Source: a virus
Taxonomy: Duplodnaviria > Heunggongvirae > Uroviricota > Caudoviricetes
Direction: 5' to 3' (one strand)
Length of the DNA: 4,369 nucleotides
Virus record (IMG/VR): IMGVR_UViG_2703719355_000024
This document shows, piece after piece, positions 1-4,023 of the stretch. Position numbers and translations under genes: made by a program. Each line of letters opens with the position of its first letter. The first letter of the stretch is position 1. The notes under the pieces were generated by a model that searched no databases, was not told the DNA's origin, and saw nothing but the letters and a program-made list of their open reading frames with translations.

Positions 1-354
1 TTGTCTGGCGCTTTTCCAACCGCTGGCGCTATCGCAGGGTTCTCTGGAGGAGGTGTTATTGGAGCAATAGTTGGTGGCGCTGCAGGTGGAGCAATTGATG
101 CGATAGCAAAAGGATCGATAGCGAAATTATCCGCAACCAGAAGTGGTCGTTACGCTATTGAAAAGGCTGTTCAAGAGGCAACAAAGGCAGTTAAGGTTGG
201 GGCAAGTGATGGCGCATTAGCGGCGGCAGAACGCAGATTTATGGCAAATAAGGCCGCCGTAAAAGCAATACGCGAGGCACTAGGAAACGAAGAGTTCCAG
301 CGTTTAGCAAGGGCTGGAATTGTGGCATCGCTAAGCGGAATGGCACAGGAGTAA
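1..354 (+). CDS. 3' portion of a CDS that probably starts upstream of the window (5'-partial); hypothetical protein with a Gly/Ala-rich hydrophobic segment followed by an Ala/Lys/Glu-rich helical tail; by position possibly the last virion/ejection-protein gene of a P22-like late operon
   Basis: Open frame from base 1 to TAA at 352-354. Position 1 is TTG with no upstream context, so it is most likely an internal codon. Residues 5-35 (AFPTAGAIAGFSGGGVIGAIVGGAAGGAIDAIA) form a glycine-zipper-like hydrophobic stretch. The ejection-protein assignment is inference from synteny only. Confidence 0.5.
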   Translation: MSGAFPTAGAIAGFSGGGVIGAIVGGAAGGAIDAIAKGSIAKLSATRSGRYAIEKAVQEATKAVKVGASDGALAAAERRFMANKAAVKAIREALGNEEFQRLARAGIVASLSGMAQE

Positions 355-684
355 TTAGTCATCCATGGATGGATTGAGCTTATCTCGTGTTGATGTGGCA
401 ATTTTACCAACATTTTTCAACCAAGATTTTAAGAAGGATATGTCGTCCTTAATATCATGAATATCCTCATTCTTTATACGATCAACCTTATCCTCTAGGC
501 TCTCTATAGAACGCTCAATGCTAGACAGAGAGACTTTTAAGTCTCCTTGCTCACGTTCCAGTGAGGATTTGAGAGCACAATATTCGTTTTCTAGAATTCC
601 TATTTTTTTTGTTAGAGAGTGCATTCGATACTCATACACCAAACCAGAAACGACTAATGCAGCCAACAGAAACCATTCAAGCAC
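355..684 (-). CDS. hypothetical small membrane-anchored coiled-coil protein (109 aa, GTG start)
   Basis: Minus-strand ORF with GTG start at 684-682, preceded by a strong Shine-Dalgarno (minus strand AAGGAGG, 5-nt spacer). N-terminal hydrophobic segment LEWFLLAALVVSGLVY, then a charged heptad-like region (LENEYCALKSSLEREQGDLKVSLSSIERSIESLEDKVDRIKNE). Stop TAA is the complement of 355-357. Confidence 0.55.
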   Translation of the reverse strand: MLEWFLLAALVVSGLVYEYRMHSLTKKIGILENEYCALKSSLEREQGDLKVSLSSIERSIESLEDKVDRIKNEDIHDIKDDISFLKSWLKNVGKIATSTRDKLNPSMDD

Positions 685-825
685 ACCAACCTCCTTAGTT
701 TTGCGCAGGATACCAGATGATAATGTATTGGTGGAGTGGTGTGTGAAAACGTGTCAACGACAAACCATCCACAACTTGGACGAATGATTTAGCAAAAAGT
801 GCTATTTTTGGTGTTTGGTGTCATA

Positions 826-848
826 GAAAAGTGAATAGCTCACTTTTC
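826..848. repeat. perfect 9-bp inverted repeat GAAAAGTGA-N5-TCACTTTTC in the intergenic region; candidate operator or RNA hairpin
   Basis: Read directly: gaaaagtga (826-834), atagc (835-839), tcacttttc (840-848). No T-run follows on either strand, so it is not a classic intrinsic terminator. Confidence 0.6.
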
Positions 849-975
849 AACATTGCATGAAACTTGCAGGAAATGTGACATTACCTTATAGGTAACTTCG
901 GCGAAAATGCAGTAAATGTGAAACGTAATGGTTTAAACATGTCGCTAAAGTGGTTGTAAGTTAGCCTCCGAAGGA

Positions 976-1052
976 TTGCTGATAGCTTTGTTATAGTATT
1001 AAATGACATTTGACATAGTTGGATACTTAGCTGTGGCTATCAAGATGGAGGT
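976..1052 (+). promoter_or_regulatory. putative promoter/leader region for the Panacea operon (elements not confidently resolved)
   Basis: TTGACA at 1010-1015 inside a tandem TGACAT-T-TGACAT motif (1004-1016), but no good -10 at 17 +/- 1 bp. Alternative weak pair TTGCTG (976-981)-N17-TTAAAT (999-1004). SD GGAGG at 1047-1051. Confidence 0.3.
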
Positions 1053-1058
1053 GTGTTC

Positions 1059-1502
1059 ATGCTTACTTGTTTTGATGTCGCCGACTACTTCCTGTCGCGG
1101 TGTGACGAGGATAGCGGTGACACAATCTCTAATTTAAAATTACAAAAGCTTGTTTACTATGCTCAGGGTTTTTCATTGGCGTTGCTTGGCGAGCCTCTTT
1201 TTCAGAATAAGATGGAAGCTTGGATGCATGGCCCTGTTGTCCCTGAGCTTTATCGCCGTTATAAACAATATGGTAATGGCGCTATCCCTTCTCCAGAGTC
1301 TTTTGATGCTGAAAAATTCAGCGAAGAACAGTTAGAGCTATTAGAAGAAGTCTGGGATGTTTTTGGGCAATTTTCTGCCTGGAAACTGAGGAACATGACA
1401 CACGAAGAGTCACCATGGAGATCAAACTATATTGAGGGTGTTGGTGGTTCTGAAATTAGCTCTAAGGAGATGGCAGAGTACTTTGCAACTCGGATTAACT
1501 AA
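1059..1502 (+). CDS. Panacea-domain protein (DUF4065 / SocA-like antitoxin domain, GepA-type phage-associated protein); putative antitoxin or sensor component
   Basis: ATG at 1059 with GGAGG 7 nt upstream; the GTG at 1053 given in the ORF track sits on the SD and is less likely. The segment LKLQKLVYYAQGFSLALLGEPLFQNKMEAWMHGPVVPELYRRYKQYG matches the DUF4065/Panacea core pattern as I recall it. Stop TAA at 1500-1502. Confidence 0.75.
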   Translation: MLTCFDVADYFLSRCDEDSGDTISNLKLQKLVYYAQGFSLALLGEPLFQNKMEAWMHGPVVPELYRRYKQYGNGAIPSPESFDAEKFSEEQLELLEEVWDVFGQFSAWKLRNMTHEESPWRSNYIEGVGGSEISSKEMAEYFATRIN

Positions 1503-1506
1503 CGAG

Positions 1507-1926
1507 ATGGCAAGAAAATCTAAAAGGATTATCCCCCCTGCTGAATCTACAGGTAAGTTAAAGTTAGGGCCGCAGTCAGGGGGGAATTCAGATCAAAAGA
1601 AACCGAAATTTTCATTCTGTTACATCCAAAGCTCTCACTGCATAACGAAATGCCAAAAAGATGAGAAAGCTGGCTTAGCTGATAAATTATACAGATTAAG
1701 TCAACTAACATGGGCAGAGATTAAGCAGCAAGGTAGGCATAAGCTTGGATTTGAGAAGATTGCAAGGGGTGCCATTAAAGCAGGTATCCCCAGTCATATA
1801 ACGGAAGACGTAGATCATTTCTTGGCTTTTAGATTTGATGATTTGAAAGCCATGGTTGGTTATCGTCTTGGATCGACATTTTTTGTTATATGGCTTGATA
1901 GAGAGTTCAACCTATACAAGCACTAA
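1507..1926 (+). CDS. hypothetical 139-aa protein, candidate toxin/effector partner of the Panacea-domain protein
   Basis: ATG at 1507 lies 4 nt after the upstream stop, in the same orientation, with no strong SD of its own, suggesting translational coupling. The ORF-track start at 1432 is a TTG inside the upstream gene. Basic low-complexity N-terminus (MARKSKRIIPPAESTGKLKLGPQSGGNSDQKKPK), a Cys/His cluster (FSFCYIQSSHCITKC), and a beta-rich C-terminus. No family recognised. An intrinsic terminator follows immediately. Confidence 0.7.
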   Translation: MARKSKRIIPPAESTGKLKLGPQSGGNSDQKKPKFSFCYIQSSHCITKCQKDEKAGLADKLYRLSQLTWAEIKQQGRHKLGFEKIARGAIKAGIPSHITEDVDHFLAFRFDDLKAMVGYRLGSTFFVIWLDREFNLYKH

Positions 1927-1953
1927 TAAAACCCACCGTCAGGTGGGTTTTTT
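1927..1953. terminator. bidirectional rho-independent terminator shared by the convergent Panacea operon and the repressor gene
   Basis: AAAA (1927-1930), stem ACCCACC (1931-1937), loop GTCA (1938-1941), stem GGTGGGT (1942-1948), then a T-run from 1949. The flanking A-tract and T-tract allow function in both directions. The repressor stop codon (complement of 1939-1941) lies in the loop. Confidence 0.8.
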
Positions 1954-2748
1954 GTTGTCTCTGCTATCGAGAAGGAAGTTCAATTTTTCCTCTATTTCTT
2001 TAAGCTTGAGATAAAGTAATTCTTTCTCGGTTCTGGCATTTTCAGCTATAAAATCCTCTGCTTCATCCAACGTATTTTCGCTATCTCTTATCGAGTGCAG
2101 CGGGGTTTTTAACAAATCAATTTGTGCATGAATAGCTACAGCAATGATTTCCATATCATCACTGATTTCCAACATCGGGTACGCTGGATTAAGTGGTTTT
2201 AAGTAAAAATGCCCCTGATCTCTTATTAGTTGCTTGAAGGTGGTTTCAAATCCATTGCAACACAGCACGAAGTCTCCTGGTTTGGCCTGAATATCCGGAT
2301 CAAAGCAGACAGTGTAGCCATCCGGGAAGCTAATTCCAGAAGATGATGTCATTGAATGCCCTGTAACCACTAACGCAAATGCATTATTCCCGGCACATAA
2401 CGGGGCAGGGATAAAGTCTATAGGAGTAATGTCGCTTGGAAATTTTCCTCCTTTAGGATAGGAATTTGATAGGTGCGAGAATACGGGGATCTCTCTGACT
2501 GTTACCGTTCTCTGTATTGAGCTAACATCAGGCCCCTCACCAACACCGATAGCTAACCATTCTGTTGTTGTCCCTAAAGTAGCAGCCAGATTTCGTAACA
2601 CAGCGTCCCTTGGCTTGGAATCTCCTGCTTCATAGGCTGCTATTTGCCTTCTTACGATGCCAACCTTATCAGCTAACTGACCTTGAGTCAGCCCCATGGC
2701 AGCGCGAGCGATAGATATACGCTTAGGAAATGAATCGTCAAATTTCAT
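1939..2748 (-). CDS. lambda CI / P22 C2-type repressor: N-terminal HTH (XRE/Cro-C1 type) plus C-terminal S24 (LexA-like) peptidase domain, with an additional ~55-residue charged helical C-terminal extension
   Basis: Start taken as ATG at 2748-2746 with SD AAGGA 6 nt upstream; the ORF-track start at 2805 has no SD and would overlap the candidate divergent promoter. HTH: ISIARAAMGLTQGQLADKVGIVRRQIAAYEAG. S24 domain: GHSM (Ser nucleophile) and TFKQLIRDQGHFYLKPLNPAYPMLE, very close to lambda CI [26 protein letters not shown] and P22 C2 [24 protein letters not shown] as recalled from memory. Confidence 0.85.
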   Translation of the reverse strand: MKFDDSFPKRISIARAAMGLTQGQLADKVGIVRRQIAAYEAGDSKPRDAVLRNLAATLGTTTEWLAIGVGEGPDVSSIQRTVTVREIPVFSHLSNSYPKGGKFPSDITPIDFIPAPLCAGNNAFALVVTGHSMTSSSGISFPDGYTVCFDPDIQAKPGDFVLCCNGFETTFKQLIRDQGHFYLKPLNPAYPMLEISDDMEIIAVAIHAQIDLLKTPLHSIRDSENTLDEAEDFIAENARTEKELLYLKLKEIEEKLNFLLDSRDNKKPT

Positions 2749-2770
2749 ATGTGATCCTTTAAAGTTCACA

Positions 2771-2799
2771 TTGACACATTCAAATTCATGGCAAATAAT
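2771..2799 (+). promoter_or_regulatory. candidate sigma70 promoter for the arc-like/antirepressor operon (Pant analogue)
   Basis: TTGACA at 2771-2776, 17-bp spacer, AATAAT at 2794-2799, about 50 bp upstream of the arc-like start. Flanked by repeated TGTGA/TCACA half-sites that could be operators. Confidence 0.45.
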
Positions 2800-2848
2800 T
2801 GGCATGAGTTTGTGATGATGTGTGATTCAAAAATACATGAGGTGAATA

Positions 2849-3022
2849 ATGGAACAGAAGAAAAAAGATATCAAGCCTATCTCCTACCGCCCAAGTGCTG
2901 AAGTGCGTGAGTTTTTGGAAGGTAACGCAGCTAAAAGCTACCGCTCAATTCAGGGAATGCTTGATTTCTTTATGGCAAGAGTGATGGAGATGGAGAGGAA
3001 AGGTGAAATTGTCATCCATTAA
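2849..3022 (+). CDS. arc: Arc-like ribbon-helix-helix transcriptional repressor (57 aa)
   Basis: Not in the supplied ORF track (below its length cutoff). ATG at 2849 with GAGG at 2839-2842; stop TAA at 3020-3022. Protein [57 protein letters not shown] aligns by eye with P22 Arc as recalled: a basic beta-strand (FNLRWPREV vs ISYRPSAEV), the RS motif, and RVME in helix B. Sits directly upstream of the antirepressor-like gene, as in P22 immI. Confidence 0.7.
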
Positions 3023-3093
3023 AAATGTTGAAGCCCCAACTGCTGCAACAGTCAGGGCTTCGGTATCAACAAAACTTACGAGGTATTATTGAT

Positions 3094-4023
3094 ATGTCAA
3101 GCTTAGCAAAGTCAACTGTAAATTGCACTAACAGCATCACCATTTCAGACGTCAAGATTCATATGGATTCAGAGGGGCGTTACTCGCTTAATGACCTGCA
3201 CAAGGCATCAGGTAAAGAGCGTCGTCATGAGCCTGCTGCGTGGCTGCGACTAGAACAAACCAATGAGTTAGTTCAAGAAATTCTAAATACACAGATGTGT
3301 GTATTTAAAAATGGCGATAACTTTAATTCTTCAGAATCGCAGATTAAGAAGCCAATGGACTCTAAGAAGGGTCGCTACGGAGGCACCTACGTGTGCAAGG
3401 AGCTTGTTTACTCCTACGCCATGTGGATTAGCGCAGCCTTTGCGCTGAAGGTTATCCGTGCATATGACGCAATGGTTACTACCACACAAGAGAGGAAGGC
3501 TATTGGCGGTAAAACTTCAGTAGCTGAACGCACACCGCTACGCGATGCAGTAAACATGCTGGTAGGAAAGAAAGGGCTTCGCTATGACGATGCATACAAT
3601 ATGGTTCATCAGCGTTTTGGTATTGACAGCATTGATGAACTTTCAATTGAACAAATCCCGCTGGCCGTAGAGTACATCCACAGGGTAGTGCTTGAAGGTG
3701 AGTTCATCGGCAAACAAGAGAAGAAAACCAACGAGCTTTCTGCAAAAGAAGCAAACAGCCTTGTATGGTTATGGGATTATGCCAACCGCTCACAGGCATT
3801 ATTCCGCGAATTGTATCCGGCGCTAAAACAAATTCAATCGAACTATTCCTGCAGATGCTACGACTACGGTCATGAGTTCTCGTATGTTATTGGAATGGCG
3901 AGAGACGTTTTAATAAACCACACACGAGATGTTGATATCAATGAGCCAGACGGACCAACGAATCTTTCCGCATGGATGAGACTTAAGAATAAAGAATTAC
4001 CTCCTTCAGTACATAACTACTGA
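3094..4023 (+). CDS. KilA-N domain protein, putative antirepressor (functional analogue of P22 Ant)
   Basis: ATG at 3094 with GAGG at 3080-3083. The in-frame ATG at 3025, 2 nt after the arc-like stop, has no SD but cannot be excluded. N-terminal region has KilA-N hallmarks ([53 protein letters not shown]). Followed by a strong intrinsic terminator. Position between the arc-like gene and the tailspike matches P22 ant. Confidence 0.75.

Follow-up and report, generated by a model that had tools for sequence, protein, structure and literature searches.

What is the function of two small genes that lie back to back near the immI genes of a P22-like prophage, and is either of them a toxin? We approached this question for a viral DNA stretch of 4,369 nucleotides (nt) from the IMG/VR record IMGVR_UViG_2703719355_000024, referred to in full length as the window, in which a gene for a Panacea-domain protein, panA, is directly followed by a gene for a protein of 139 amino acids (aa), here called the partner. 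A sequence-only reading had taken the two genes for a candidate toxin-antitoxin (TA) or anti-phage defence pair. The pair is in fact already known: Kurata et al. 2022 (PNAS 119:e2102212119; PMC8832971) list its family as PanA/PanT cluster pT1/T1, so that we are dealing with a catalogued PanAT candidate without validated toxicity. In the reading that we consider probable, if only by a small measure, the PanA-PanT cassette encodes a latent or narrowly targeted ribonuclease (RNase) and acts as a trigger-dependent abortive-infection or exclusion module. The identity of its parts is nearly certain, RNase activity is moderately likely, and the defence role is speculative.

The upstream gene starts with an ATG at position 1059, which has a GGAGG ribosome-binding site 6 nt ahead and an alternative GTG at 1053, and it ends with a TAA at 1500–1502. 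After a gap of 4 nt (1503–1506), the partner gene follows on the same strand, reaching from an ATG at 1507 to position 1926. Just behind it, a hairpin with a 10-bp stem containing 5 G-C pairs is followed by a T-run and shows a free energy of -17.1 kcal/mol (z = -5.0 versus shuffles); the compact operon with a strong terminator is thus exactly as first described. The minus strand of the hairpin folds too (-15.4 kcal/mol), and as the stop codon of the convergent repressor gene (1939–1941) falls within it, the terminator probably works in both directions. The equivalent hairpin in phage Emek is annotated as a rho-independent terminator. A 100%-identical E. coli locus in RefSeq displays the same two coding sequences, WP_000954425.1 ("Panacea domain-containing protein") and WP_024173453.1 ("hypothetical protein"). 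Given the Pfam match of PanA and the hundreds of homologues of the partner, both open reading frames (ORFs) are genuine genes and not chance ORFs.

A Panacea/DUF4065 core had been recognised by eye in the upstream protein, and the Pfam search bore this out, PF13274 matching residues 28–120 over profile positions 1–112 of 113 with 87.3 bits against a cutoff of 25.7 (E = 1.8e-24). PanA also matches phrog_1281, while PADLOC holds no model that matches it. An additional N-terminal domain is absent from PanA, which is a standalone Panacea/DUF4065 protein, and Dataset S1 of Kurata et al. (PMC8832971) carries the label "noNTD" for these PanAs. The most variable part is the C-terminal tail (residues 121–147), which lies outside the Pfam domain and reveals a mean identity of 0.40 versus 0.63 in the core. 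The Panacea domain is shared with SocA, the ClpXP adaptor of the type VI TA system SocAB of Caulobacter crescentus, but PanA reaches only 71.4 bits on the NCBIfam SocA equivalog model NF047745, under its cutoff of 190, and the partner is unrelated to SocB. Other PanAs were reported to act by direct binding and not by proteolytic adaptation (Kurata et al., PMC8832971).

The window pair and the published T1 pair are effectively the same proteins. The pT1/T1 entries are those of Salmonella phage vB_SemP_Emek (YP_006560565/YP_006560566) and E. coli MOD1 (WP_089622957/WP_077635758), which are given in antitoxin-then-toxin order, flagged as phage-borne and provided with a reciprocity score of 4|5 (PMC8832971). 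The partner of the window is identical to the Emek partner at 138 of 139 residues (99.3%; same 90% cluster), and PanA agrees with WP_089622957 at 146 of 147 residues, with the same slot being occupied in E. coli prophages; we infer that the MOD1 partner is the same protein as that of the window. The pair also shows the two-gene arrangement of PanAT systems, with a 4-nt gap, PanA upstream on the same strand and no conserved third gene. For T1, Table S1 predicts "mRNase" as the mode of action, and Dataset S1 mentions pT1 at least 217 times, T1 being the largest PanT cluster in the portion of that dataset examined (PMC8832971). In the literature searched, we found no paper after 2023 on the PanA-T1 pair.

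A survey of genomic neighbourhoods, as the sequence-only reading had proposed, revealed that homologues of the two genes do co-occur. It comprised 80 loci on one-genome-per-species contigs, and after setting aside three in which the match abuts a contig end, a close PanA homologue was present directly upstream and on the same strand in 77 of 77; the matches had E-values from 1e-38 to 1e-71, except for a split copy (L076) with 2e-09. Among viral loci of IMG/VR, 76 of 80 were paired, three of the remaining four being 5'-truncated remnants. The fourth, L110 (UViG 2639762749_000019, 2688–3423), has an intact partner gene of 143 aa behind a 100-aa ORF, of which only the last ~22 residues (...GVGYQVISHNELKDYFLTRIN) resemble the C-terminal tail of PanA, while the Panacea domain is gone. 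This locus leaves two readings: a partner that does no harm in the absence of PanA, or a PanA tail that suffices by itself for neutralisation.

The hosts of the pair include Cyanobacteria, Acidobacteriota, Desulfobacterota, Armatimonadota, Planctomycetota, Bacillota, Bacteroidota and Proteobacteria, and it was also found in one archaeal metagenome-assembled genome (an ANME archaeon) and in phages. Across homologues, most spacings between the two genes fall between -20 and +15 nt, and pairwise identities of PanA and of the partner correlate with each other (Spearman 0.62), the partner having a mean cross-phylum identity of ~56%. No conserved third gene appeared at 62 homologous loci, whose neighbours are heterogeneous and mostly housekeeping genes, with integrases and defence-like ATPases in the minority. 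Near-obligate pairing, tight spacing, co-variation and the lack of a third gene characterise PanA and its partner as an autonomous, mobile two-gene cassette. On Vibrio cholerae contigs the pair sits among cassette-like genes, a context that we read as the superintegron. The cassette is a very frequent component of P22-like prophages of E. coli and Salmonella, and the exact 139-aa partner protein occurs on 694 contigs. At one locus, L046 (Desulfobacterales bacterium HSG2, 131–5573), the pair is found between a cluster of NsnB-like/HEC-03B-like ABC ATPase genes and the PDC-M31 A+B candidate defence system. Such defence neighbours are anecdotal and most neighbours are housekeeping genes, and defence-island context was therefore dropped as support.

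Homologues of the partner amounted to 182 in a word-indexed search and to 871 representative clusters in an exhaustive HMMER search (E <= 0.001), nearly all of them being stand-alone proteins of 134–145 aa. A confident AlphaFold2 model based on 40 homologues reached a predicted local distance difference test (pLDDT) score of 86.9 and displays a disordered, basic N-terminal tail of ~30 residues, after which come a short strand, a pair of helices and an antiparallel sheet of four strands. RelE, HigB, YoeB and YafQ ranked above ParE in both fold searches done with this model; in the Foldseek search, the same families of the RelE/ParE superfamily were top-ranked with weak E-values, whereas Foldseek against the viral structures of BFVD returned nothing. 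According to the model, the partner has the fold of the RelE/ParE superfamily (BECR), with N-terminal helices on an antiparallel sheet, and it is this predicted fold that marks the downstream gene as the toxin-like partner of the pair. The earlier statement that the second protein belongs to no recognisable family holds for Pfam, in which 150 representatives of the partner family gave no consistent family, but not for the fold and the PADLOC library. One of these representatives showed a partial Panacea match, probably due to a merged or truncated gene call. Among other candidates, Caskin-2 as a single-sequence match in the PDB was regarded as noise (E about 1), and a match to the NCBIfam model MAG6450_fam (E = 0.023) was below the cutoff, the literature on MAG6450 being of no help.

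In YoeB, the catalytic set consists of E46, R65, H83 and Y84. The partner residues that are conserved in at least 90% of the 150 representatives are F35, W69, G81, E83, P95, R109, G118, D131, Y137 and H139, and four of them, E83, R109, Y137 and H139, follow a YoeB-like order on YoeB-like secondary-structure elements, in a comparison at the level of secondary structure. The resulting pattern is a Glu, an Arg on the next strand and a Tyr-x-His at the extreme C-terminus.

The PADLOC profile PDLC03891 (NsnC, Menshen) aligned by its positions 178–279 of 284 with residues 31–135 of the partner (E = 5.9e-6), and it matched 121 of the 150 representatives, with a best E-value of 2.6e-11 and always via its C-terminal ~100 positions. 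By this profile match, the partner shares sequence homology with the RNase effector domain at the C-terminus of NsnC, which was described as a YafQ-like BECR RNase effector controlled by partner proteins (PMC12065111, a study that distinguishes nine BECR subfamilies). The relationship with Menshen (NsnABC) is confined to this effector domain, as the partner matches only the C-terminal third of the NsnC model and stands alone, without the inactive-PIN N-terminal domain of NsnC, while the window contains neither NsnA (ParB-DUF262) nor NsnB (ABC ATPase) genes and has a Panacea protein as the regulator. Since the PIN domain, nsnA and nsnB are all absent from the window, the locus as a Menshen system was rejected.

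Taken with the fold and the residue conservation, the NsnC profile makes it moderately likely that the partner is a putative endoribonuclease acting through E83, R109, Y137 and H139. Compared with RelE, YoeB, HigB and YafQ, which are ribosome-dependent mRNA interferases, the partner showed no membership in their sequence profiles and is ~50 residues longer, carrying the disordered basic tail, a Cys-containing segment (38–49) and an inserted loop (87–103). It is also accompanied by a Panacea protein instead of RelB, YefM, HigA or DinJ, and its near-identical copies, unlike RelE-type toxins, were non-toxic in published assays.

How the two proteins might work together can be outlined as follows. 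The cassette is a moron of the variable region that separates the ejection-protein genes from immI, and it is this position that suggests a defence or addiction role. By analogy with other standalone-Panacea PanAs, PanA may bind the partner directly and keep it silent, possibly with a contribution from PanA's variable C-terminal tail, the partner's disordered N-terminus or both. Standalone Panacea was described to neutralise toxins directly, and Panacea was proposed as a sensor (PMC10440598). The partner RNase would be latent or narrowly targeted, which is made probable by the two near-identical constructs that were non-toxic in E. coli, and its trigger could be, for example, a phage infection sensed through PanA. 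In this way the cassette might serve both the prophage and its host, abortive infection or exclusion being a likelier role than kill-on-loss addiction. If true, such a trigger-dependent RNase module would mean an abundant and so far unrecognised prophage immunity function in enteric bacteria.

Several observations weigh against this trigger-dependent RNase module. The Emek and E. coli MOD1 partners, expressed in E. coli from pBAD33, were scored "not toxic", and neutralisation of T1 was scored as not applicable in Table S1, so that T1 differs from the ten validated PanAT pairs in having non-toxic constructs and no demonstrated neutralisation (PMC8832971). The toxicity that the sequence-only reading had considered for the downstream gene is largely contradicted by these results. 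At the sequence level, the Pfam models of RelE, ParE, HigB, YoeB and YafQ matched 0 of the 150 partner-family representatives at E <= 1, hhalign of our alignment A1 against single YafQ, HigB and YoeB sequences gave nothing significant, and a profile search of PDB sequences with the partner was empty. In addition, PADLOC offers no system-level model of this pair, defence-like neighbours accompany only a minority of the homologues, and neither a promoter, by consensus scan, nor a DNA-binding autoregulator was identified at the locus.

A bolder version of the module, which we regard as possible though doubtful, is that PanA-T1 would be a widespread two-gene abortive-infection system, in which a latent BECR RNase is activated when Panacea senses a phage, and not a kill-on-loss TA system. 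An RNase that stays harmless until Panacea senses a phage cue would explain why over-expression was non-toxic. If this were true, it would represent the first defined sensory role of a standalone Panacea domain.

A classical type II addiction pair with a constitutively active toxin is disfavoured by the non-toxic, near-identical copies, unless "not toxic" is an artefact of mis-annotated starts. For the partner, public annotations use three starts, giving 139 aa (ATG 1507), 147 aa (TTG 1483) and 160–161 aa (TTG 1441), and at least 1,000 E. coli and Salmonella contigs carry a 147-aa form. The Emek construct was probably the 161-aa ORF, which overlaps panA by 62 nt, and the MOD1 construct fits the 147-aa form with an overlap of 20 nt, so that the published constructs would carry 22 and 8 extra N-terminal residues, respectively. 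The 139-aa start is favoured by the RefSeq annotation, by an invariant M1 in alignment A1 and by homologues of 134–144 aa from many phyla, all of which lends some substance to the artefact. However, the first ~30 residues of the partner are modelled as disordered and are poorly conserved, an extension by eight residues is not obviously inactivating, and two independent constructs were tested, neither being toxic. Because the extended N-terminal region is of this kind, the published negative result is more likely real than artefactual.

Genome data speak on both sides of the addiction pair as well. A prophage remnant of 4.3 kb has kept the cassette intact, and three E. coli genomes combine a frameshifted partner with an intact panA; in the genome survey, several partner copies seem split or frameshifted (L034, L054, L073), PanA being split in one case (L076). 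The E. coli frameshifts, though, fall within a C6 homopolymer and might stem from sequencing errors, and L110 retains an intact partner gene with PanA down to its last ~22 residues. The small bicistronic operon, with the antitoxin first and the 4-nt gap, corresponds to the type II layout, but the DNA-binding domain of a type II antitoxin is missing, PanA having the Panacea domain only. Overall, we consider an addiction pair with an active toxin unlikely.

Still less probable is a partner that has the RelE/ParE fold without being an RNase toxin, be it a gyrase poison in the manner of ParE or a non-catalytic regulator that binds RNA or ribosomes and acts with PanA in some phage or host function unrelated to toxicity. 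Such a protein would agree with the published lack of toxicity in E. coli, with the missing sequence-level link to canonical RelE-clan Pfam models and with the mean cross-phylum identity, which is very high for a TA toxin. Against it stand the ranking of RelE, HigB, YoeB and YafQ above ParE, the near-invariant E, R and Y together with the C-terminal H, which are typical of catalytic RelE-type toxins, and the homology of the family to an effector domain proposed as an active RNase; a gyrase poison would, moreover, be expected to be toxic too. That PanA is a phage counter-defence protein, a decoy antitoxin against PanT-type toxins of the host in the manner of T4 Dmd with the downstream gene as an accessory, is very improbable. 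Phage-borne promiscuous antitoxins are known (Dmd is cited in PMC8832971) and the pair is phage-borne, but the tightly coupled genes are also present in non-phage chromosomes of many phyla, always with the partner gene, and their co-variation indicates a cognate pair and not a free-standing decoy.

By itself the locus adds little, as the exact pair has been catalogued, tested and annotated in RefSeq. What is added here is an independent confirmation, by modelling, of a RelE/YoeB-like fold of the T1 partner, its sequence link to the Menshen effector domain, the probably over-long starts of the published constructs, and a corrected genomic slot.

The whole window represents the immI surroundings of a P22-like (Lederbergvirus-type) prophage, and its features are compiled in Table 1.

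Table 1. Features of the 4,369-bp window.
Feature	Position	Strand	Remark
Gene-16 DNA-transfer protein	1–354	+	last 117 codons
109-aa ORF	355–684	-	transmembrane + coiled coil
Leader upstream of panA	685–1058		non-coding, 374 nt
panA	1059–1502	+	147 aa, standalone Panacea/DUF4065 protein, putative antitoxin or regulator
Partner gene	1507–1926	+	139 aa, PanT cluster T1 of Kurata et al.
Intrinsic hairpin terminator	1928–1951		closes the operon
Repressor gene	1939–2748	-	helix-turn-helix (HTH) + S24 peptidase, at P22 mnt position
Small Arc-like ORF	2849–3022	+
sar antisense RNA	3026–3092	-	Rfam RF00262
ant	3094–4023	+
Tailspike N-terminus	4124 onward	+	truncated

In P22, the gene order is 16 - sieA(-) - orf59a(-) - mnt(-) - arc - sar - ant - 9. 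Gene 16 of the window is directly adjoined by the 109-aa ORF on the minus strand, and the panA pair is located between this ORF and the repressor gene that takes the mnt position. Furthermore, the 34 nt directly upstream of P22 sieA are also present at window positions 682–715 with 97% identity. The sieA-equivalent slot had been assigned to the pair, yet both the place of sieA and the shared 34-nt boundary are held by the 109-aa ORF, which is the positional counterpart of sieA. Its protein reveals no similarity to SieA; it belongs to phrog_5962 (function unknown), has an N-terminal transmembrane helix and a coiled coil, and is a candidate replacement exclusion gene. The pair shares the inter-module region with P22 sieA and is equipped with a terminator of its own, but it lies on the opposite strand and not at the exact position, and neither of its members resembles SieA. 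It is thus fairly described as a moron that occupies a variable slot beside an exclusion-type gene, while the label "sieA-equivalent" is inexact.

The cargo between gene 16 and immI of P22-like phages varies, comprising sieA, a ClpP-like gene or others. The same cassette is present in phages Emek and phiv205-1, some other E. coli prophages have an extra ClpP-like gene in the region, and phages E212 and EC.P3 carry a diverged allele of the cassette (PanA 71% and partner 58% identical) behind a near-identical leader. The leader of the window is ~97% identical to that of E212, this non-coding flank thus being much more strongly conserved than the cargo. Its role may be that of a recombination boundary or of a regulatory element that has so far escaped recognition. 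The promoter of the operon presumably lies in the leader as well. A sigma-70 consensus scan of its plus strand gave no site, and a candidate extended -10 element found by eye, TGTTATAGT at 989–997, was dropped because the position differs in E212, which has TATGGT there.

Further downstream, the repressor gene, for which the mechanical ORF extends to 2805, encodes a CI/LexA-like protein of 269 aa with HTH_3 and Peptidase_S24 domains and a C-terminal coiled-coil extension. Divergent from it, a strong Pant-like promoter is located at 2771–2799 (11 of 12 consensus matches). With an S24 repressor filling the mnt position opposite this promoter, antirepressor expression could be de-repressed via RecA-stimulated self-cleavage of the repressor, rather than being under Mnt control. 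The sar RNA, which regulates ant, scored 62.3 bits on its Rfam model (gathering score 43), which is covered in full length. Its terminator hairpin at 3030–3061 is 93% identical to the P22 sar terminator and lies within a fold of -30.4 kcal/mol (3022–3096). The position of the sar RNA implies that the mechanical ORF from 3025 over-extends ant, whose true start is the ATG at 3094.

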